Positions 1 through 12,583 of a DNA stretch of 12,583 nucleotides are shown here, piece by piece. Location of the stretch: the IMG/VR virus record IMGVR_UViG_2562617113_000016. One strand, 5' to 3'. Each line of letters begins with the position of its first letter. Position 1 is the stretch's first letter. The notes below the pieces were generated by a model. The model made no database searches. It had not been told where the DNA came from and saw only the letters and a list, made by a program, of their open reading frames with translations. A program made the translations under genes and the position numbers. This DNA is from a virus. Taxonomy: Duplodnaviria; Heunggongvirae; Uroviricota; Caudoviricetes.

Positions 1-1371
1 TCAGGCTGTCGCAGGGTCGTCACATTTTGGCAGCCAGTCGCCGTAGCTTTCCTCTTTCAGCGTCAGGTTGGTCTGTATCCCCTGTTTGGTATGGCGCTTC
101 TCGTAATTCAGTCCGTATTCCTTCAGCATCACCGGCAGCCCCAGCCCGAACATTTTCAGACTGAGTACATTCCGGTAGCCGTTTGCCTCCATGTAGGCCA
201 GATAGGCGTGATAGAGGTATTTACGGTAATTACGCGGGATGATACTGGCGTTCCCCATATACATGCCGCTGGTCTGCGGCAGGGTTTCCAGATAGCCGAT
301 AAAATCAAACGTCGGGTCGGCATCCCGTTTGATGTTCAGTGCCTCGTCTGAGTTCTGCTGGGACTGAAGCAGTGACCGGGCGAGCATCGGGTCGCTGAAC
401 TTCTGCATCAGGTGACGCACGATGACCGCCAGCTCGCGGGTGATTTTGTCCTTAAGCTGCGGGTCGCGCTCCTGCGGGGCTATCTGTTCCGGGAAGTGAA
501 TAATCACCCGCCGGCGTGACACGCCGCCGCTGCGGTCGGTGAAGCGCATCGGGTTATTGTTCACGGCCAGAATCACCGCCGGGATATGCGTGGAGTACGC
601 ATCCCGGTATTTCGGGTCCACGGACACCGCATCGCCGCCGGTGATGGCCTTGAGTCCGGCACCGTCGCCGCTCCATTTTTCCTGGTCCGGCAGGCGTATC
701 AGTGAGAAGCCAGTTAACGCGGCACGTTCACGCGGGGATTCCAGCGTCTCAATGGTGGCCGACGTGGCGTTATCCTCCCCGGCCAGCAGGGTGGCTATTT
801 CGGCCATGATACTTTTGCCGCTGCCGCCGGGACCGGTCACCTCCAGAAAGAGCTGCCAGTCGTAGCGGTTTGCCAGCACCATAAACAGTGCGGCCAGAAT
901 CACGTCGCGTTTTTCCGCACGGCCACCGGCGGCACGGTCAAGCCAGCGCCAGAACGCGGGGGCGTGGGTCTCCAGCGTTTCACCGTCCACCGGCGGGGTG
1001 AAATCCACATCGCACAGGGTGCGCATCCAGTGTAACGGACTGTGCGGGTGGAACGTGCCGTTCTGCGTGTCGAGCACGCCGTTACGAAAGCCAATCAGGC
1101 GGCGGGAGGGGGCTTCCTGCTGTGGAATAATCAGCTTCAGGGTGTCCACCACGGAGGCCACCTTCCCGGAGGAGAACGGCGCGCGCAGACGCTGAAACAG
1201 CCCGGCCACATCCCGGGCAAAGTCCTGTGGCGGCAGCACCTTCCAGACACCATTTTCATAGCGGGACAGAAGCTGGCCGTTGGCATCGACCGCGAGCGCC
1301 TCACCGTAATGCTCATAGATACGCATGGCCTTTTCGCTGGTACTCATGGCGGAAAACTCTGCTTCGCTCAT
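1..1371 (-). CDS. alpha: P4-type alpha protein, C-terminal helicase/origin-binding portion (ORF downstream of the frameshift)
   Basis: 456-aa ORF; translation matches the C-terminal two thirds of P4 alpha as I recall it, including a P-loop-like GPGGSGKS. Stop codon at 1-3. Open frame continues upstream of the ATG to about 1536. Confidence 0.85.
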   Translation of the reverse strand: MSEAEFSAMSTSEKAMRIYEHYGEALAVDANGQLLSRYENGVWKVLPPQDFARDVAGLFQRLRAPFSSGKVASVVDTLKLIIPQQEAPSRRLIGFRNGVLDTQNGTFHPHSPLHWMRTLCDVDFTPPVDGETLETHAPAFWRWLDRAAGGRAEKRDVILAALFMVLANRYDWQLFLEVTGPGGSGKSIMAEIATLLAGEDNATSATIETLESPRERAALTGFSLIRLPDQEKWSGDGAGLKAITGGDAVSVDPKYRDAYSTHIPAVILAVNNNPMRFTDRSGGVSRRRVIIHFPEQIAPQERDPQLKDKITRELAVIVRHLMQKFSDPMLARSLLQSQQNSDEALNIKRDADPTFDFIGYLETLPQTSGMYMGNASIIPRNYRKYLYHAYLAYMEANGYRNVLSLKMFGLGLPVMLKEYGLNYEKRHTKQGIQTNLTLKEESYGDWLPKCDDPATA

Positions 1372-2333
1372 GGTGTCGAACGGGCTTTCAGCCGGTGGCC
1401 GGATGGCATCGTAAATGGCCTTACGGGTGGCCTCCCCGCCGTACTGCGTGAAGGCATCATTCCAGTCACCGAAGACCGGCGGCAGGGCAACAACGCCCTC
1501 ACACGCATCTGCGGCTGCGGCAGCTTTTTCTGGCCGTCACCGCTGAGGTCACGGTCTGCGGCAAGGACAATCTGACAGGCCGGATGCTTCTGCCGGGCAA
1601 GGCTGGCCAGAGAAAGGAGGTTCACGGAAGAAAGCGCCACCATCACCGTTTCACCGGTCAGGTGATGCACGGTAAGTGCGGTCGCGTATCCCTCCGCTAT
1701 CCACAGACGTTTTCCGGCCTGATTCTGTCCTTCAAGGGTGTGACAGGTGCCCCTGACCTGTCCGCCTTTCAGGGTGCGCTTACGGCCGTCAGCACTGATT
1801 AACTGAAGGTTAACCAGTTCGCCGCTGTCGTCATACAGTGGCACCACAAGGTCACCGGCACGCCAGCTCACGCCACCGGCTCTGTGTGTGCCGGTCAGCA
1901 TCCGGCATTCCCGGCCGGGAAAGCCCTTGCGGGTCAGGTAGGCGTTACCGGTTCCGGGACGGGTTTTCGCCATCAGGGTTTGTGCCAGTGCGGCGGCGTT
2001 CTTCCGGGCAGCGTCTGTTTCAGCAACGGCGGCAGCCGTCACTGCCGGGTCAGCCGGTGGCAGGCTGCCGGTCACGGCAGCCACCTTTGCGGCCGCGTCG
2101 GACGGGGAAACACCAAACACCTTTTCAACCAGTTTCAGGCCGTCACCGGCACCACACTGATTGCAGTACCAGGTGCCGCGCCCCTCCCTGTCATCAAAAC
2201 GGAAGCGGTCACTCCCGCCACAGACCGGACAGGGCTGATGACGGTTTTTCAGCACCTGAATCCCCAGCGCCGGGAGAATACGCGGCCAGTGGCCGAGTGC
2301 ATGGCTGACGGTGGCGGTTACGTTCATTTTCAT
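1368..2333 (-). CDS. alpha: P4-type alpha protein, N-terminal primase portion (zinc-binding CxxC...CxxC plus primase core); last ~51 codons are out of frame
   Basis: 321-aa ORF starting MKMNVTATVSHALGHW with CPVCGG...CNQCG zinc motif. Good RBS (AGGAG) about 9 nt upstream of the ATG at 2331-2333. The tail after GDGQKK looks like frameshifted read-through ending at TGA overlapping the ATG of the downstream ORF. Confidence 0.85.
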   Translation of the reverse strand: MKMNVTATVSHALGHWPRILPALGIQVLKNRHQPCPVCGGSDRFRFDDREGRGTWYCNQCGAGDGLKLVEKVFGVSPSDAAAKVAAVTGSLPPADPAVTAAAVAETDAARKNAAALAQTLMAKTRPGTGNAYLTRKGFPGRECRMLTGTHRAGGVSWRAGDLVVPLYDDSGELVNLQLISADGRKRTLKGGQVRGTCHTLEGQNQAGKRLWIAEGYATALTVHHLTGETVMVALSSVNLLSLASLARQKHPACQIVLAADRDLSGDGQKKLPQPQMRVRALLPCRRSSVTGMMPSRSTAGRPPVRPFTMPSGHRLKARSTP

Positions 2334-2803: not shown

Positions 2804-3259
2804 TTACAGATAATTGCGGTAACTGTTATCCGGGGTGGTTTCCGGGTCAGGCTCCGTGCGGGGAATTTCCCGCCATTCCCGCGCTACCGGTGCTGCCCGG
2901 CTGACCGGAACAGTGTCCTGCGGGTAAATATCCAGATATTTCTCCCGCCATTTCTGTAATTCCGGGTCTCCGGCCATTTCTTTCAGTACCGCATGCCGGT
3001 TTACGGGGCTGCGTTTAAACAGGTCAGGACGGTCACAGGTAAATTCCCGCAGAAAACGCCCCAGCGGGATGTCTGTGGTGCGCCCGTCGGCGAGGATACG
3101 CACAAGGATACTGAATTTACGGCGGTACGGATTCCAGACAATGTCCGGGCAGCGGTACGGCATTTCCCACGGAATACCGTCTTCCAGAATGCCGACCACG
3201 GCCACATCGGGAAAACCGGCAGAACGGTAAATCTCACCGGGCTGGGGAAAATCAAACAT
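2804..3259 (-). CDS. hypothetical protein, P4 left-operon orf151-like
   Basis: 151-aa ORF; start overlaps the stop of the upstream ORF by 8 nt (translational coupling). Confidence 0.6.
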   Translation of the reverse strand: MFDFPQPGEIYRSAGFPDVAVVGILEDGIPWEMPYRCPDIVWNPYRRKFSILVRILADGRTTDIPLGRFLREFTCDRPDLFKRSPVNRHAVLKEMAGDPELQKWREKYLDIYPQDTVPVSRAAPVAREWREIPRTEPDPETTPDNSYRNYL

Positions 3260-3539
3260 GCGTCCTGTCTCCCCGGTCTTTCTGCTGGGCGAGAAAATCG
3301 CGGCACAGGCCTTTGGCTTTCAGCTCATTCAGCACAAAATCAATATCTTCATTCAGGTAGCTGAAAATATGCGGAATGTAGAGCTGATGCAGGCCGGAGA
3401 GTTCACGGTGAATCAAATCACCCCCAACAAACTGGGATACGGCGCTGGCGCGGTTGAGCTTATGGTAAGCCTCAATGCTGAGGTGTTCACGGGCGTCATG
3501 ACGCGCTGAGACGGTCTGAGGGGCTTTTTTATTACGCAT
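3252..3539 (-). CDS. small 95-aa protein, candidate P4 epsilon-like (helper derepression) protein
   Basis: Internal ATG at 3537-3539 of the longer track ORF 3252..3779, preceded by a strong SD (GGAGGTG, about 5 nt spacing). The upstream 80 codons of the track ORF look non-protein-like. Size and position match epsilon in P4; identity by recall only. Confidence 0.45.
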
Positions 3540-3729
3540 GAGACACCTCCACCACCGGCAGACGGGCAGCAAGGGAGAGCACATAGTCACGGACAAGGGA
3601 ACGGCGGGCGCTGCGTTCATCACCGGCGACGGTGCGAAGCATACAGATACGGGGATGACGGTCTGCGCGACGGACAGCCGCAAACACAAAGACAAATTCA
3701 GGGTGTGAGGGGGTAAGGGTCGTAGCCAT
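3532..3729 (-). CDS. small 65-aa protein, first gene after the immunity leader (kil-like position)
   Basis: ATG at 3727-3729 with strong SD GGAGGT and 6-nt spacer; lies in the frame of track ORF 3532..4167, whose N-terminal region I interpret as leader. Alternative starts at 3906 or 3936 have poor RBS. Confidence 0.4.
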
Positions 3730-3739
3730 AAGGCAACCT

Positions 3740-4046
3740 CCGATAACAGCGTAAATGACGCTATCGCCGGAGTTCTCACGCTCGATGGCGATAGCCCAGA
3801 CGGGGGTGAGAATACCGGCGTTATCGGAAACCGGCCAGCCCGGAGGCTGCCCCGCCTGAGCTACCATTGACTCAGTGGCATAACATGCGATTGCGAACAG
3901 GATCATACCTGCACGGCAAACCACACGCCACACCATAATCTGGTGCTCTGTGGCGTTGATTGCGACACAAAAAAAGACGCATGGCGCGTCATATGTCGCC
4001 GATAACATACTCGGGTTCTCACGCCCGGCTGCCGATTTTGCGGCAG
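3740..4046 (-). ncRNA. candidate P4-type immunity leader (cI-RNA-like region with seqA/seqB/seqC-like complementary elements)
   Basis: Direct repeats GCGTGAGAAC (4015-4024 and 3772-3781, minus strand) and GTTATCGG (3999-4006 and 3740-3747), with a segment between them (3804-3827) complementary to both. The downstream copy overlaps the SD of the 65-aa ORF. Hairpin plus T7 run at 3969-3990. Confidence 0.35.
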
Positions 4047-4083
4047 CGGAAAAACTATATCCGCAAATGCCGGAAAAAGGCAA
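4047..4083 (-). promoter_or_regulatory. candidate sigma70 promoter (PLE-like) for the left operon
   Basis: Minus strand TTGCCT (4078-4083), 18-bp spacer, TATAGT (4054-4059), immediately downstream of the vis-like gene. Confidence 0.4.
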
Positions 4084-4118
4084 GCCAGAAAAAGGGAGTT
4101 TTTGCAGAGCGGGCATCA

Positions 4119-4385
4119 TCATGCGTCGTACCCCCGTTTGCGTCCGGCAATGCGTCCGGCCATCCATGCGGTGACTTCAGAGTGCAGCCAGGCCACATTT
4201 TTACCGCCAAGACTCACCTGCGGCGGAAATTCCCCCTTACGGATGAGTTCATAGATGGTCGAGCGTGACAGGCCGCACAGGTGCATCACTTCCGGCAGAC
4301 GTAAAAAACGCTCCTGCGTGATGTCCGGCAGCGGCATCAGTGGCGTCACAGGGGCGGGAGACGGGGAAGAAAAAACAGCTTGCAT
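4119..4385 (-). CDS. AlpA/Vis-family HTH DNA-binding protein (P4 orf88/vis-like regulator or excisionase)
   Basis: 88-aa ORF with the AlpA-family signature RLPEV...[17 protein letters not shown]...W..SEV; GAGGT RBS about 8 nt upstream of the ATG. Confidence 0.75.
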
Positions 4386-4439
4386 CGGGCTACCTCGTTA
4401 ATGTCCATACAGCACCGGATAAGTCCGTCCGGCTTCGGG

Positions 4440-4505
4440 TAGCGCTTTATTTTGTGAATATTTTTGGCAGACGCAACAGGGGGGATTTGTTCCGGCAGCC
4501 TTACA
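4440..4505 (-). promoter_or_regulatory. candidate Delta/Ogr-activated late promoter (PLL-like) driving the vis-like gene
   Basis: TGT-N12-ACA dyad at 4488-4505 (TGTtccggcagccttACA); a start about 55 bp downstream on the minus strand would fall near 4441. Confidence 0.45.
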
Positions 4506-4530
4506 ATGACTGTGTGTTTTTTGTTCATTC

Positions 4531-4560
4531 CCACTTAAAGTCATTTAAAGCCACTTAAAG
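4531..4560. repeat. three tandem 10-bp repeats (C/T)CA(C/T)TTAAAG
   Basis: CCACTTAAAG TCATTTAAAG CCACTTAAAG, helically phased, between the PLL-like dyad and the iteron cluster. Confidence 0.6.
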
Positions 4561-4664
4561 CAATTCGTAATTTTTATAGTGAAATACAAATCGTTTCTTC
4601 TTATTCATTCACAGCGAATTAATAAAAACAAACAGTAGTAAACAGCACAAAAAGTCCATGAGCG

Positions 4665-4768
4665 GGTGAACAGTGGTGAACAGACGGTGAACAGTCATTA
4701 CTGCGATTGTTCACCCTTTAACTTACTGTATTACTTATCTTTTTTTTATGGTGAACAGAGGTGAACAG
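4665..4768. repeat. iteron cluster of P4 type I (TGTTCACC / GGTGAACA) alpha-binding repeats; candidate ori
   Basis: GGTGAACAG at 4665-4673, 4675-4683, 4686-4694, 4750-4758 and 4760-4768, plus an inverted copy TGTTCACC at 4708-4715; 10-11 bp spacing; flanked by A-rich tracts. Confidence 0.6.
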
Positions 4769-4849
4769 TAAAATATAAAAAAAAACAAACAGTAAGCCGG
4801 TTTTTCCTGCGACCTTTTCCTGGCTTGCCGGTCTGAGGATGAGTCTCCT

Positions 4850-4915
4850 GTGTCAGGACTGGCACATCTGCAATGCGTCGTGTTGTTGTCCGGTGTACGT
4901 CACAATTTTCTTAAT
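4850..4915 (+). promoter_or_regulatory. candidate Delta/Ogr-activated late promoter (Psid-like)
   Basis: TGT-N12-ACA dyad at 4850-4867 (TGTgtcaggactggcACA), about 55 bp upstream of a plausible start near 4913; sid ATG at 4939. Confidence 0.5.
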
Positions 4916-7199: not shown

Positions 7200-7241
7200 G
7201 ATGCAGATTTTATTATTACTAATGGGGTGCAAAAAACACGT

Positions 7242-8531
7242 ATGAAAAAAAATGTTGGTAACCGCAATAAAAATTCTGATGTGCTTATTCTTAAAGGTAT
7301 GTTGAACAATTTAAAAGATGGTTTAAATAATTTTGAATTATTGCTTAAATTGCAGTTTAAAATATTGGTGTGCGTGATGAGATGTGAGCGGAAAATTAAG
7401 TTTCTTAAAAAGAATAATGCTCATTTAAGGTCGGTGTTAAAAAAATCAAGACTTCCAAAAGAAAAATCTCTGGCAGTAAAAGAAAAAATTAAATACAATT
7501 CTGAAGTAATTACTGCTGAAAAATTCAAGATATATACGTATAAAATGTTTGGCGATGCTGTTGCATTTTTATACATCGATAAATATACAATTAAACAGTT
7601 ATACTACAATGTACATAATTACAATGTTAAAGAAACGTCGGGGGATTTGAGCGGTAAGTCTGGATTGCGAGAGGAATGGGAATGCGTAAAACTTGCATGT
7701 GATAATAAAGTTCCAGCTCTGTTGCATGATATTACAATGAGTATAAGGCATGGAGATGTATCACTTTTAGGTAAAGATGAGCCATTTATTATTGAGATGA
7801 AATCAAGCTCAAATACAAATAAGAGAGTTGAGCGGCAAAAATCTAACCTTGAAAAATTAGGAAGTTTCATAGCAAAAGACGAAGCTGAAAATTTTCGAGG
7901 GATTCCATTGTTAATCAGGAAAAATTTGTTAACTGAAGAGGAATCATATTCTCAGGTTTTAAATGAGTGTCTTAATGATTGTCGCAGCAAAGGAATGGCT
8001 TTGGTTGAAGCTGAAAAAGGATTTTATATCTGCGCAGTTAGAGAAGGGAATATGGCTTCTATGCTAGAAAATATAGATTTTGATGAAAAAAAAGAAGTTT
8101 TTCCTGTATTTCTCAATCAATATAAAAATAATGGGGAATGGCTACCATTAACACCATTTACACTATTAATTAACGATCCTTACGATCTCCATGATTTTAT
8201 CGAAGGGGAATTAACAATAGCTTGTTTTTTAATGCTCGATGAATACAAAAAAATTGCTATAGAACTAGGCTATGAATTAGTTTTTGTTTCAAATGATGAA
8301 TATAGTATCTTGTTAAAAAGAATTGGTGAAGATATTATATTTGGTGTTTCCTGGCAAATGTTGTTAAGAGTTCCATTAGAGATGATGTCCATGTCATGGT
8401 TGATAAAAGAAAGTATTAATATATATAGTAACTCCCTAGAAAATAGCACCCATAATGATGAATTAAATCAGGGGCAGGGAAATACTAAAAATTCATTATT
8501 CGAAAAATACAAGAATTTATTTTCTTACTAA
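7242..8531 (+). CDS. cargo protein A, unknown function, putative PD-(D/E)xK-fold nuclease
   Basis: 1.3-kb ORF in AT-rich DNA, where random ORFs of this length are improbable. First ATG at 7242; track start is GTG at 7227. Motif ...PALLHD(168)...FIIE(190)MK(192) fits the hhhD...hhhExK pattern. No strong RBS seen. Confidence 0.8.
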   Translation: MKKNVGNRNKNSDVLILKGMLNNLKDGLNNFELLLKLQFKILVCVMRCERKIKFLKKNNAHLRSVLKKSRLPKEKSLAVKEKIKYNSEVITAEKFKIYTYKMFGDAVAFLYIDKYTIKQLYYNVHNYNVKETSGDLSGKSGLREEWECVKLACDNKVPALLHDITMSIRHGDVSLLGKDEPFIIEMKSSSNTNKRVERQKSNLEKLGSFIAKDEAENFRGIPLLIRKNLLTEEESYSQVLNECLNDCRSKGMALVEAEKGFYICAVREGNMASMLENIDFDEKKEVFPVFLNQYKNNGEWLPLTPFTLLINDPYDLHDFIEGELTIACFLMLDEYKKIAIELGYELVFVSNDEYSILLKRIGEDIIFGVSWQMLLRVPLEMMSMSWLIKESINIYSNSLENSTHNDELNQGQGNTKNSLFEKYKNLFSY

Positions 8532-8632: not shown

Positions 8633-10006
8633 TTATCTAATATATTTTGTTACTTCCATATTATCTTCATCGTCAAAAGAGTACTCAACCATCATACGAC
8701 TATTTTTACCTGACTTAATATCTTGAAGCCAAGCTGAGGCAACCCTAGGGTCTAAATGCTGTTTTCTACTCAGCTCATTATTTTTTAGCCTATCAAGCCT
8801 TATTGCTCTTTGAAGAGTTTTATCGATGTAGTCTTCCAAATCAATGGACAACCTCCTTTTTGGATATAAATATTGGTATTCATCACACAATAGTACTCCT
8901 GGTAATTTAATTTCGCGTAGGTCGAAAGAATACCAACTATAGTTTTTAGACTCATTAGCTAATTCCGAAACTAGATGAGCCCCATTTTGTTGTAAGAGAG
9001 ATATTTTGTGATCGATGCTAATGTCAGATATTTCTCTTAAAGACTCAAAATGCATGTTTTCGTAGATAGTATTTAATAAAATACTCTCCATGTAAGAGTA
9101 AAAATCAGTACCATCGATGATAATATTAGTTTCATTGTAGACTGCAAGAGACATAAGATATATGAAGAAAACTGCGGGAGTACTATTACCTCTGTTTATA
9201 TCAAGTCTAAGGGAGTTGACATAATCAGGCGGAGAGTTTGAGAAAATTTCTCTTATTAACCAGTCTGGAATAGTGGTTCTTGTTAGAATGTCAGCGTTCA
9301 AACTTGAACGACATAAAAAAATACACATCTTTAATTTTAATTTTATTGAAAATGATGGGAATAAATGATCGATGAAAGATAAAATACATGTATACTCTGC
9401 TAAGTCTGTTTGTTGCAACTTTTCTTTTATTTCATTTTCAAGCATTTTTAATTTAAAAAAATCATTCCTTTTTTCTAATATTTCCCAATGAAATAATTGC
9501 TCCTGAGCGTACGCATGCCCCTCTAAAATAGCTAGCATGCTTAAAGGAATGTTTAGGATTTCTTGATAATTATTAACATACCCAAAGAAATGGACTCTGA
9601 TATACACACCCATATCGTCATCATATTGTAATGATGCTTTAATATTTTTATAATTTAATTTATTAGTGCTGTTGTTTTTGAAGTGATAATGTAAAGTAAT
9701 TTCAGTATCATCAACTAATAAATTATCAAAAGCCTCCTTTGTTTCATATTTAAAATAGTTATATAGCCGACATGAATAATTTAACCCCCAGTGAGTTGTA
9801 GAACAATCAAGTAAATGGATTGTTTCATGGAGATATGTTTTATAAAATTCAATTTCGCTATCATCAAAATCATATATGCTTTTACTGTCTATGATATTTT
9901 GTGCTTGCGGTAAACTTATATTTAATTCATCGTTTGAAATCTCAATTAAATGTGATGAAAAATCATAAGAACCCAATGTTTTGCTGTTAAATATACATCC
10001 GCTCAT
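8633..10006 (-). CDS. cargo protein B, unknown function, putative zincin-like metallopeptidase (HEXXH)
   Basis: 457-aa ORF in AT-rich DNA. HETIH at residues 60-64 (DNA 9815-9829) in the context YKTYLHETIHLLD. Start ATG overlaps the integrase stop (ATGA) with AGGGGA RBS 6 nt upstream. Confidence 0.8.
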   Translation of the reverse strand: MSGCIFNSKTLGSYDFSSHLIEISNDELNISLPQAQNIIDSKSIYDFDDSEIEFYKTYLHETIHLLDCSTTHWGLNYSCRLYNYFKYETKEAFDNLLVDDTEITLHYHFKNNSTNKLNYKNIKASLQYDDDMGVYIRVHFFGYVNNYQEILNIPLSMLAILEGHAYAQEQLFHWEILEKRNDFFKLKMLENEIKEKLQQTDLAEYTCILSFIDHLFPSFSIKLKLKMCIFLCRSSLNADILTRTTIPDWLIREIFSNSPPDYVNSLRLDINRGNSTPAVFFIYLMSLAVYNETNIIIDGTDFYSYMESILLNTIYENMHFESLREISDISIDHKISLLQQNGAHLVSELANESKNYSWYSFDLREIKLPGVLLCDEYQYLYPKRRLSIDLEDYIDKTLQRAIRLDRLKNNELSRKQHLDPRVASAWLQDIKSGKNSRMMVEYSFDDEDNMEVTKYIR

Positions 10007-10278
10007 AGCAAATCCCCTAAAAGATAATCAGAGTACCATTGAATCATCGTTTTCCTTTGAGAAAAATATTGTGCGTGATTATAGGTTCCTCGGATATTGT
10101 TCTTATCAACATGTGCTAATTGCATTTCAATCCAGGTACTATCAAATCCCTGTTCATGTAGGATTGTTGACATTGTATGTCTAAAACCGTGACCTGTAGC
10201 ACGTCCTTTGTAACCAAGTAACTCAATCACTTGTGAAACACTTTCTTTTGAAATTGGTTTGCTACGTAACCGGCTCAT
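10003..10278 (-). pseudogene. int: tyrosine recombinase (P4-type integrase), C-terminal remnant only
   Basis: 91-aa ORF with catalytic-domain signature GHGFRHT...LAHVDKNNIRGTYNHA (R-H-R-Y region). The upstream in-frame codon is a stop and no integrase-like sequence is found further upstream; IS DNA begins there. Confidence 0.8.
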
Positions 10279-10318
10279 TTAAACCGTCTGGTCTGTTTCC
10301 TCCGGCTCTACAAAAATA

Positions 10319-10996
10319 ATGTCCATCATTTTTAATGGACACTATCGTATGAAACACCGGACCTGGATCACTGAAGCTTTACGTCTTCACTTTGAAGAAC
10401 ATTTACCCCGGGTTGTGGCCGGGCGTCGCCTGGGTGTACCAAAATCAACAGTTTGTAGTATGTTCGTGCGCTTTCGGAGAGCTGGCCTTTCGTGGCCTTT
10501 GCCCGCAGGCATGTCGGAGCAGGAACTTGATGCCTGCCTTTACGGACAATTTTCCACGGTACCAGTCGTACGTCCTGAAAGCACCGTTATATCCGAAGCC
10601 CCCGTGGTAAAAAAACGTCCCCGGCGGCCCAACTTCCCTTATGAGTTTAAAATCGCCTTAGTGGAGCAGTCACTGCAGCCCGGAGCCTGTGTGGCGCAGA
10701 TCGCCCGGGAAAACGGAATCAACGATAACCTGCTCTTCAACTGGCGCCATCAATACCGGAAAGGTGGCCTGCTGCCTTCCGGAAAAAATATGCCGGCACT
10801 GCTTCCCGTGACGTTAACGCCGGAGCCGGATAATAAAATCCCGGCCCCCGCACAGGAACCAGAGCAGATAAATACACCGTCCGACAGTCTGTGTTGTGAG
10901 CTGGTTCTGCCGGCCGGAACTCTCAGGCTTAAAGGTAAACTGACGCCGGCGTTATTACAGACACTTATCCGCGAAATAAAAGGGAGCAGCCACTGA
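10319..10996 (+). CDS. tnpA: IS66-family TnpA (orf1) accessory protein with HTH; N-terminal extent uncertain
   Basis: 225-aa ORF. C-terminal part (KRPRRPNFPYEFKIALVEQSLQPGACVAQIARENGINDNLLFNWRHQYRKG) is a transposase HTH typical of IS66 orf1. N-terminal about 90 aa carries a second HTH (LRLHFEEHLPRVVAGRRLGVPKSTV...AGLSWPLP) that resembles IS21-family IstA N-termini from memory. Confidence 0.65.
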   Translation: MSIIFNGHYRMKHRTWITEALRLHFEEHLPRVVAGRRLGVPKSTVCSMFVRFRRAGLSWPLPAGMSEQELDACLYGQFSTVPVVRPESTVISEAPVVKKRPRRPNFPYEFKIALVEQSLQPGACVAQIARENGINDNLLFNWRHQYRKGGLLPSGKNMPALLPVTLTPEPDNKIPAPAQEPEQINTPSDSLCCELVLPAGTLRLKGKLTPALLQTLIREIKGSSH

Positions 10997-11343
10997 TGAT
11001 ATCTCTCCCTGCAGGTTCGCGTATCTGGCTGGTTGCAGGTATCACCGATATGCGAAATGGCTTTAACGGCCTGGCATCAAAAGTTCAGAACGTCCTGAAG
11101 GATGACCCGTTCTCCGGACACCTGTTCATCTTCCGCGGACGCCGGGGTGACCAGATAAAAGTGTTGTGGGCTGACAGTGACGGACTGTGCCTCTTCACCA
11201 AACGCCTGGAGCGGGGCCGCTTCGTCTGGCCAGTCACCCGTGACGGCAAGGTGCACCTTACTCCGGCTCAGTTATCCATGCTTCTTGAAGGTATCAACTG
11301 GAAGCACCCGAAACGAACGGAACGCGCTGGAATCCGCATATAA
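10996..11343 (+). CDS. tnpB: IS66-family TnpB (orf2)
   Basis: 115-aa ORF with ATGA overlap to tnpA; sequence (..GLCLFTKRLERGRFVWP..) matches IS66 Orf2-like proteins as recalled. Confidence 0.85.
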   Translation: MISLPAGSRIWLVAGITDMRNGFNGLASKVQNVLKDDPFSGHLFIFRGRRGDQIKVLWADSDGLCLFTKRLERGRFVWPVTRDGKVHLTPAQLSMLLEGINWKHPKRTERAGIRI

Positions 11344-11362
11344 CCCGTTGTAAAGTGAGGAT

Positions 11363-12583
11363 ATGGACACCTCACTTGCTCATGAGAACGCCCGCCTGCG
11401 GGCACTGTTGCAGACGCAACAGGACACCATCCGCCAGATGGCTGAATACAACCGCCTGCTCTCACAGCGGGTGGCGGCTTATGCTTCCGAAATCAACCGG
11501 CTGAAGGCGCTGGTTGCGAAACTGCAACGTATGCAGTTCGGTAAAAGCTCAGAAAAACTTCGTGCAAAAACCGAACGGCAGATACAGGAAGCACAGGAGC
11601 GAATCAGCGCACTTCAGGAAGAAATGGCGGAAACGCTGGGTGAGCAATATGACCCGGTACTGCCATCCGCCCTGCGCCAGTCTTCAGCCCGTAAACCGTT
11701 ACCGGCCTCACTTCCCCGTGAAACCCGGGTTATCCGGCCGGAAGAGGAATGCTGTCCTGCCTGTGGTGGTGAACTCAGTTCTCTGGGATGTGATGTGTCA
11801 GAGCAACTGGAGCTTATCAGCAGCGCCTTTAAGGTTATCGAAACACAACGTCCGAAACAGGCCTGTTGCCGGTGCGACCATATCGTGCAGGCACCAGTAC
11901 CTTCAAAACCCATTGCACGCAGTTATGCCGGAGCGGGGCTTCTGGCCCATGTTGTCACCGGGAAATATGCAGACCATCTGCCGTTATACCGCCAGTCAGA
12001 AATATACCGTCGTCAGGGAGTGGAGCTGAGCCGTGCCACACTGGGGCGCTGGACAGGTGCTGTTGCTGAACTGCTGGAGCCGCTGTATGACGTCCTGCGC
12101 CAGTATGTGCTGATGCCCGGTAAAGTCCATGCTGATGATATCCCCGTCCCGGTCCAGGAGCCGGGCAGCGGTAAAACCCGGACAGCCCGGCTGTGGGTCT
12201 ACGTCCGTGATGACCGTAACGCCGGTTCACAGATGCCCCCGGCGGTCTGGTTCGCGTACAGTCCGGACCGGAAAGGTATCCATCCACAAAATCACCTGGC
12301 CGGTTACAGCGGTGTGCTTCAGGCCGATGCTTACGGTGGTTACCGGGCGTTATACGAATCCGGCAGAATAACGGAAGCCGCGTGTATGGCTCATGCCCGG
12401 AGAAAAATCCACGATGTGCATGCAAGAGCGCCCACCTACATCACCACGGAAGCCCTGCAGCGTATCGGTGAACTGTATGCCATCGAGGCAGAGGTCCGGG
12501 GCTGTTCAGCAGAACAGCGTCTGGCGGCAAGAAAAGCCAGAGCCGCGCCACTGATGCAGTCACTGTATGACTGGATACAGCAA
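11363..12583 (+). CDS. tnpC: IS66-family transposase TnpC (orf3), 5' partial, runs off the window
   Basis: Translated by hand from ATG 11363: [29 protein letters not shown]..., with leucine-zipper-like N-terminus and CPACGG...CCRCDH zinc motif typical of IS66 transposases. Open to the window end, so absent from the ORF track. Confidence 0.85.

Follow-up and report, generated by a model that had tools for sequence, protein, structure and literature searches.

In P4-like prophages, an IsrK-like element corresponds to seqA and a C4-like RNA to the CI RNA (PMC3632133; PMC4825925). The promoter PLE lies inside the eta gene, which contains seqA and CI, and kil is nested within it (PMC10111431, citing Forti et al. 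1999). What PLE transcripts yield is a truncated form, Kil; eta is translated in full length solely from a late promoter lying upstream, in coupling with alpA, and its translation prevents termination (PMC10111431). Here we describe a stretch of the IMG/VR virus record IMGVR_UViG_2562617113_000016, lying around positions 3730-4083 (minus strand) of a window of 12,583 nucleotides, the window being the whole piece of DNA that was analysed. An earlier note, made from the letters alone, had read this stretch as a P4-style RNA-immunity leader. We came to regard it as the immunity region, an antisense-RNA switch, of a P4-like satellite prophage of Escherichia coli, and we put the probability of this reading at roughly 0.88.

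Orthology with the immunity region of P4

Judged by its sequence, the region is orthologous to that of P4 itself, which goes beyond mere P4-likeness. In a BLAST search of phage records, positions 3500-4400 of the window (minus strand) aligned with positions 8136-9045 of P4 (NC_001609) over the full 901 nt with 93.6% identity. When the two leaders were aligned pairwise, the mean column identity was 95%, and the PLE hexamers, the 5' hairpin, the terminator and the CI stems were unchanged. We also scanned the whole window with Rfam, counting only matches above the curated gathering scores. Three families were found, all of them on the minus strand and in this stretch, with E-values of 1e-10 to 1e-14 (Table 1); the same families match P4's own region, C4 with 74.9 bits and isrK with 60.8 bits. 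The leader is surrounded by the P4 gene set, namely alpA/vis, eta/kil, epsilon, orf151, orf106 (DUF5375), the alpha primase, sid, delta, psu and an integrase remnant, and epsilon is the next gene of the operon after kil. The seqA/seqB/seqC arrangement proposed in the earlier note is thus borne out by the identity to P4, the shared Rfam families and the gene set.

The individual elements that the note had placed here were recovered almost without change. They are the sigma70-like promoter downstream of the vis-like gene, with the same hexamers as in P4; the hairpin at the 5' end of the RNA; a first target element (3999-4024), which resolves into GCGTGAGAAC and GTTATCGG; a segment complementary to it (3804-3827); and a second copy (3740-3781) reaching into the Shine-Dalgarno sequence of an open reading frame (ORF) of 65 amino acids (aa). 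Only the terminator needed correction: its location and its run of seven T residues were as described, but the stem contains six pairs, one of them G-U, and not five. The name t1 and its CI-dependent role in P4 reportedly come from Briani et al. in 2000. An alternative, antiterminating structure was sought by eye, and nothing was seen beyond a weak 4-bp option. PLE is the sole sigma-70-like site in 3400-4900, and the P4 record X02534, dating from 1984, labels the same TATAGT 'consensus -10 sequence'. From the position of this hexamer and the start of the Rfam model, the leader RNA probably begins near 4047.

The CI RNA had a predicted folding energy of -47.2 kcal/mol (z = -5.58), and the record X02534 marks a 76-nt dyad at the place of its stem. 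Both parts of seqB, the loop and the bulge, are unpaired in the predicted CI fold, and seqB is complementary to seqA and to seqC at 15 of 15 positions each. Module a2 of seqC overlaps the kil Shine-Dalgarno sequence GGAGG (3741-3737), which is located 7 nt 5' of the kil ATG. In the window there are two occurrences of the composite pattern GTGAGAAC-N(5-30)-GTTATCGG, where 200 shuffles gave an expectation of 0.00, and the 333-nt leader (3715-4047, minus strand) was predicted to fold with -158.5 kcal/mol and a z-score of -6.85 against shuffles. Because of the composite-pattern counts, the z-score of the leader fold and the Rfam matches above gathering scores, the RNA elements go beyond what chance would give.

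Covariation of the pairing sites and recognition alleles

Relatives were collected by the invariant CI stem pattern, which yielded 74 IMG/VR contigs and 7 contigs of species-representative genomes (one genome per species). The 42 distinct leaders among them were aligned (alignment A2), and pairings slid out of register served as controls. Over the 15 pairs between seqA and seqB, 98.7% of the cells were paired, compared with 41-52% in the slid controls, and 11 of the pairs had changed on both sides. The corresponding values for the 15 pairs between seqB and seqC were 99.5%, 36-49% and 10 pairs. Taken as comparative sequence evidence, the three-way covariation of seqA, seqB and seqC is very strong, and all three sites were fully matched in 38 of the 42 leaders. 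The structures that carry these sites were also preserved: the hairpins of the seqA leader were 99.7-100% paired, the t1 helix was 99.2% paired with two pairs changed on both sides, and all three CI stems were 100% paired with three double-sided changes in the closing stem. Both the alignment with the PLE-cI-kil region of P4 and the covariation by which the earlier note wanted its proposal to be checked were therefore found.

A few relatives deserve separate mention. In L036:8591-8945 and L079:3702-4056, seqA is of another type than the leader's own seqB and seqC, and in L035:6914-7268 and L045:6824-7178 a seqB of the GTCATAGG type fits seqC poorly (4-5 of 8 positions). These mosaic or degenerate leaders may have arisen by recombination, with autoregulation or immunity impaired. 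The enterobacterial CI stem was also present, without any change, in L004 and L008 (metagenome-assembled genomes, 'Clostridiales bacterium' / 'bacterium') and in L010 (Cupriavidus basilensis). L008 carries the immunity type of the window; L010 is more divergent, with no exact seqA match by module search and an Rfam isrK score of 50.3 bits, just above the threshold. All three are probably mis-binned or contaminant contigs.

One refinement over the earlier note concerns specificity. By comparison of the sequences, the predicted recognition sequence is not that of P4, in that all three sites carry another version of one of its two modules. Within the functional elements the window departs from P4 mainly in module a, and the changes are matched: seqA and seqC read GTTATCGG in the window and TTCACAGG in P4, while seqB reads CCGATAAC and CCTGTGAA, respectively. 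Module b (GTGAGAA/UUCUCAC) is common to both, so the specificity of the window copy is GTGAGAA plus GTTATCGG. Across the two types, only 4 of the 8 positions of module a can pair, and its predicted energy is reduced from -11.5/-15.3 to -2.8/-4.1 kcal/mol. The duplexes predicted for the CI RNA of the window have -22.4 kcal/mol with its own seqA and -24.5 kcal/mol with its own seqC; on the P4 targets the values are -13.7 and -13.3 kcal/mol, nearly all of which comes from the shared module b. Since one module is shared, the window element may be partly cross-immune with P4 and not fully homo- or heteroimmune. The window also has a 9-nt in-frame deletion relative to P4 in the spacer between t1 and cI, and eta therefore has 196 aa here and 199 aa in P4.

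The same modular pattern was seen among the 42 leaders, which hold five alleles of the 7-nt module (GTGAGAA, GTGGAAA, GTAGGAA, TTCGCAG and TTTGCAG) and nine of the 8-nt module in 15 combinations (columns 109-115, 125-132, 314-321, 329-335, 362-368 and 395-402 of A2; loci L005-L084). Duplexes predicted across the types had -22 to -27 kcal/mol for cognate partners and mostly -3 to -15 kcal/mol for non-cognate ones, with values to about -20 kcal/mol where one module is shared. Along the DNA the modules interleave in the order b-a ... a'-b' b-...-a, so that they could be reshuffled only by several short conversion tracts or by six coordinated substitutions; this suggests that competing satellites are under strong diversifying selection. 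Co-resident satellites were seen in two genome pairs only, one pair of different types and one of the same type. We consider it an even bet that P4-like satellites carry a two-module combinatorial RNA 'immunity code', in which each allele is written three times over the eta frame. A change of specificity by matched substitutions is a known principle (phiR73, P1/P7), and the only mildly new angle is that diverse, modular alleles recur at three sites on top of a coding frame. In the searchable literature we did not find this modular, population-level picture described; the main text of a large survey of P4-like elements (PMC8628076) does not contain the word RNA, and its single instance of 'immunity' belongs to the title of a reference on another matter.

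Table 1. Features of the immunity region and of the adjoining element, in coordinates of the window
Feature	Position	Strand	Basis and remarks
PLE promoter	4083-4054	minus	TTGCCT-18-TATAGT, internal to eta; hexamers and homologous position as in P4; activity predicted
c4-a1b1 (RF03163)	4060-4008	minus	50.8 bits, gathering score 46.7
seqA leader RNA (isrK-like)	4047-3970	minus	RF01394, RF03163, fold
isrK (RF01394)	4047-3970	minus	71.2 bits, gathering score 50; end to end including terminator
5' hairpin	4047-4028	minus	GCTGCCG-CAAAAT-CGGCAGC, perfect 7 bp
CGGG..CCCG hairpin	4027-4012	minus	presents module b1, GTGAGAA (4022-4016)
First target	4024-4015	minus	GCGTGAGAAC
Module a1 (seqA)	4006-3999	minus	GTTATCGG
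Intrinsic terminator (t1 in P4)	3990-3969	minus	stem GACGCG/TGCGTC 3990-3976, T7 3975-3969
CI RNA (C4 antisense RNA, RF01695)	3871-3784	minus	76.2 bits, gathering score 45, full model length; 16-bp closing stem (3865-3850 with 3805-3790) and two inner hairpins
seqB, CI recognition surface	3827-3806	minus	loop module a' CCGATAAC 3827-3820; bulge module b' TTCTCAC 3812-3806
seqC, downstream target	3779-3740	minus	module b2 GTGAGAA 3779-3773; module a2 GTTATCGG 3747-3740
eta, 196 aa	4122-3532	minus	RefSeq coding sequence in L001, 'host cell division inhibitor Icd-like protein'; translation
kil, 65 aa	3729-3532	minus	ATG 3729; NCBIfam NF033153 (Icd-like) 76.1 bits, residues 12-59
alpA/vis homologue (P4 orf88)	4119-4385	minus	Pfam Phage_AlpA 74.2 bits; P4 orf88 at homologous position
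epsilon (helper derepression protein)	3252-3539	minus	Pfam Derepression 170 bits; P4 epsilon at homologous position
Integrase remnant, P4-type	10003-10278	minus	C-terminal ~88 codons; family scans
HTH_Tnp_1 ORF	10319-10996		IS66-family element
TnpB_IS66 ORF	10996-11343		IS66-family element

The eta frame, the proposed switch and other readings

The earlier note had treated the region as the leader of the left operon. The RNA leader elements are there, but the eta frame spans all of them, crossing PLE, seqA, t1, the CI RNA and seqC. The region thus has a coding and a non-coding side and is no pure 'leader'. A second refinement is that the 65-aa ORF is kil, which is nested in frame within eta and forms its end. 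The eta ATG overlaps the alpA TGA stop codon (ATGA, 4122-4119). The Pfam family Phage_ASH ('Ash protein family', PF10554) covers Eta residues 22-143, the part overlying the RNA elements, and the NCBIfam Icd-like family covers residues 143-190. Of 85 related loci, about 75, the P4 reference among them, keep this frame open across seqA, the terminator and the CI RNA; indels between relatives are multiples of three, the 9 nt by which the window falls short of P4 being one example, and kil has 65 codons in most of these loci. Because it carries the Icd-like domain NF033153, kil is a homologue of the gene that comes first after c4 in P1. The ATGA overlap, the conserved frame and the multiples-of-three indels are consistent with the account of eta and kil in PMC10111431.

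Since the eta frame runs through the RNA elements, each change of immunity type alters three short stretches of Eta; its residues at seqA, for example, are R-E-N, R-G-N or R-R-N depending on the type. In the RefSeq record L001 the stretch is annotated solely as a 196-aa 'Icd-like' coding sequence, with CI RNA, seqA and PLE unannotated, and the Icd-like coding sequence is the sole named feature under the CI RNA in the five records listed. The possibility that it is an annotation artefact was rejected, as eta is described as a real gene (PMC10111431) and its frame is conserved.

What we observed here, namely the orthology with P4, the folds, the complementarity, the covariation, the overlap of seqC with the kil Shine-Dalgarno sequence and the reading frames, can be joined to the regulatory steps of the P4 literature as follows. 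By homology to P4, PLE would act constitutively and produce a leader RNA from near 4047, in which the seqA target (b1, a1) would be followed by t1, by the CI precursor (within 3871-3784) and by seqC over the kil ribosome-binding site. The precursor would be processed to a stable, tRNA-like CI RNA; the P4 leader is processed to a stable RNA of ~69 nt by RNase P and PNPase. On newly made PLE transcripts, whether they come from the prophage itself or from a superinfecting element of its own type, the CI loop CCGATAAC and the bulge UUCUCAC would then pair with seqA and seqC. Pairing with seqA would promote termination at t1, by which CI would regulate its own synthesis, while pairing with seqC would hide the Shine-Dalgarno sequence of kil, presumably the first gene translated from PLE transcripts. 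With kil untranslated, transcription would end at t4 and at the Rho-dependent timm before epsilon, orf151, orf106 and alpha, so that the replication and helper-derepression genes would remain switched off. Transcripts that start at the late promoter, further upstream, would be expected to escape the block, with eta translated through the region by coupling to alpA. The details of t1, t4 and timm in P4 are taken in part from secondary sources.

When the seqC region was folded alone (3738-3772, minus strand), a hairpin CUCCGGCGAUAGCG...CGCUGUUAUCGGAG was predicted (-25.3 kcal/mol, z = -2.8). As this hairpin would already sequester the kil Shine-Dalgarno sequence, translation of kil may be limited even without the CI RNA.

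Several points weigh against the antisense-RNA switch, or against its use in this copy. Folding, another check proposed in the earlier note, gave the low z-scores of the leader and of CI alone reported above, but in the minimum-energy structure of the whole 333-nt leader before processing, seqA is paired in cis with seqB and the CI closing stem is missing. The formation of CI must therefore depend on co-transcriptional folding or processing, and the model implies that co-transcriptional folding, termination at t1 or processing would decide which of the leader structures is formed. Neither timm nor the non-canonical t4 could be located by sequence; the sole hint was an excess of C over G in kil (C/G 1.3-1.7 over 3747-3548), which is compatible with Rho loading and proves nothing. 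The element also looks defective. An IS66-family insertion leaves only the last ~88 codons of the integrase, and the alpha primase gene (1-2333, minus strand) lacks 1 nt near 1524 that is present in the copy of L001, with which it is otherwise identical; this splits the 777-aa primase-helicase into ORFs 1368-2333 and 1-1371. The missing nucleotide reflects a real frameshift or else an error of assembly. With the integrase truncated and alpha frameshifted, the switch may control nothing useful in this copy.

If the minimum-energy fold is taken at face value, both seqA modules pair with seqB of the same transcript, and the region could be a purely cis-acting attenuator that makes no diffusible RNA. 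Such a device leaves unexplained why the third copy, seqC, covaries just as tightly, and why the CI segment has a tRNA-like fold whose stems are 100% paired and which matches a family of processed, trans-acting RNAs. Moreover, P4 immunity acts in trans on superinfecting phage (PMC4825925), and we give this explanation very little credence. The trans-acting molecule could also be the other RNA of the leader. Following the logic of IsrK in Gifsy-1, the short RNA 4047-3970 would be the regulator, opening the downstream ribosome-binding site by acting in trans on the read-through transcript, or titrating the CI RNA; it would then be an activator or anti-antisense and more than a target. It bears both modules complementary to CI and matches the Rfam isrK model end to end, terminator included (71.2 bits), and the seqA RNA has been called a structural homologue of IsrK, with the suggestion that the downstream STnc1160 may be CI-like (PMC4825925). 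The published work on P4, the orthologue with 94% identity, nevertheless assigns the trans role to the CI RNA and makes seqA its target, and the seqC target with its overlap of the kil Shine-Dalgarno sequence covaries with CI, as repression by CI predicts. It is unlikely that the IsrK-type logic describes this locus; the two roles of the seqA RNA are, however, not mutually exclusive.

It might also be argued that the region is conserved because of the Eta protein (Pfam 'Ash') alone and that the RNA features are incidental. The single open frame in most relatives, the indels in multiples of three and the Phage_ASH match on residues 22-143 would all agree with this, whereas a constraint on coding does not yield matched reverse-complement changes at three separate sites. 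These changes alter Eta amino acids each time, and the Rfam structure models score far above threshold, which makes the chance of this explanation close to negligible in our estimate. We thus prefer the antisense-RNA switch.

The carrying element and described relatives

Of 5426 complete E. coli genomes, at least 123 contain an identical CI RNA, E. coli ATCC 8739 being one of them, and 878 contain related ones. The closest relatives of the window adjoin setC/yicL, which we take to be the selC neighbourhood. Homology to related prophages ends at 10266 and the IS66-family element follows (10267-12583); the junction between it and the integrase was found in no complete E. coli genome of the collection. 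In the closest complete genomes, which are from Ecuador, the IS21-family element ISEc12 lies between alpA and sid (L001:10352-12654), in the ori/late-promoter region of P4, and the window does not have it. Two large ORFs are situated between psu and int (7227-8531, plus strand, 434 aa; 8633-10006, minus strand, 457 aa). They had no Pfam, NCBIfam or PADLOC match and may be an uncharacterised cargo or defence pair; the psu-int interval is the 'hotspot' at which P4-like satellites vary (PMC9122126).

The system was known before, and the curated Rfam models pick it up; our finding is a re-identification of textbook antisense-RNA immunity in one of many E. coli P4-like prophages. The matched replacement of alleles offers a clean natural data set on how RNA-RNA specificity diversifies under an overlapping coding constraint, and the immunity alleles may help to predict which satellites exclude each other.

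Among the described systems, phage P4 (NC_001609 / X51522 / X02534) has the same promoter, 5' hairpin, module b, terminator, CI stems, 65-aa kil, nested eta and flanking genes; it differs in module a. The retronphage phiR73 is likewise a P4-like element whose immunity specificity is unlike that of P4 through its CI RNA and targets. It integrates at selC, as titles cited in PMC6174562 and PMC8628076 indicate, and Sabbattini et al. (Virology 216:389, cited in PMC7567579) reportedly found in 1996 that it is heteroimmune to P4, with its specificity changed by matched substitutions. No phiR73 record was among the matches of the window in the phage collection, and no retron was seen in the window.

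The immI system of P1 and P7 (c4, the a1b1/a2b2 targets and icd-ant) belongs to the same RNA and target families (RF01695, RF03163) and follows the same logic, in which an RNA processed out of the same transcript pairs with two targets, one upstream and one downstream, the second of which overlaps the ribosome-binding site of an Icd-like gene. The specificities of P1 and P7 also differ by matched substitutions. No similarity to P1 or P7 at the DNA level was found in the phage search. Their cargo differs too: the window carries epsilon and replication genes and no ant antirepressor, the genes downstream of kil being epsilon, orf151, orf106 and alpha and none of them of the Ant type. Epsilon, a different protein from Ant, derepresses the P2 helper. 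In P4 the output is described as termination of transcription and not as a block of translation alone. Finally, IsrK/STnc1160 of Salmonella Gifsy-1 (RF01394) shares the structure of the leader RNA with its terminator, and there, too, a processed RNA follows further downstream. IsrK, an Hfq-binding sRNA of 77 nt, is reported to activate orf45-anrP translation in trans, whereas its homologue in the window would, by orthology with P4, be the target of CI.

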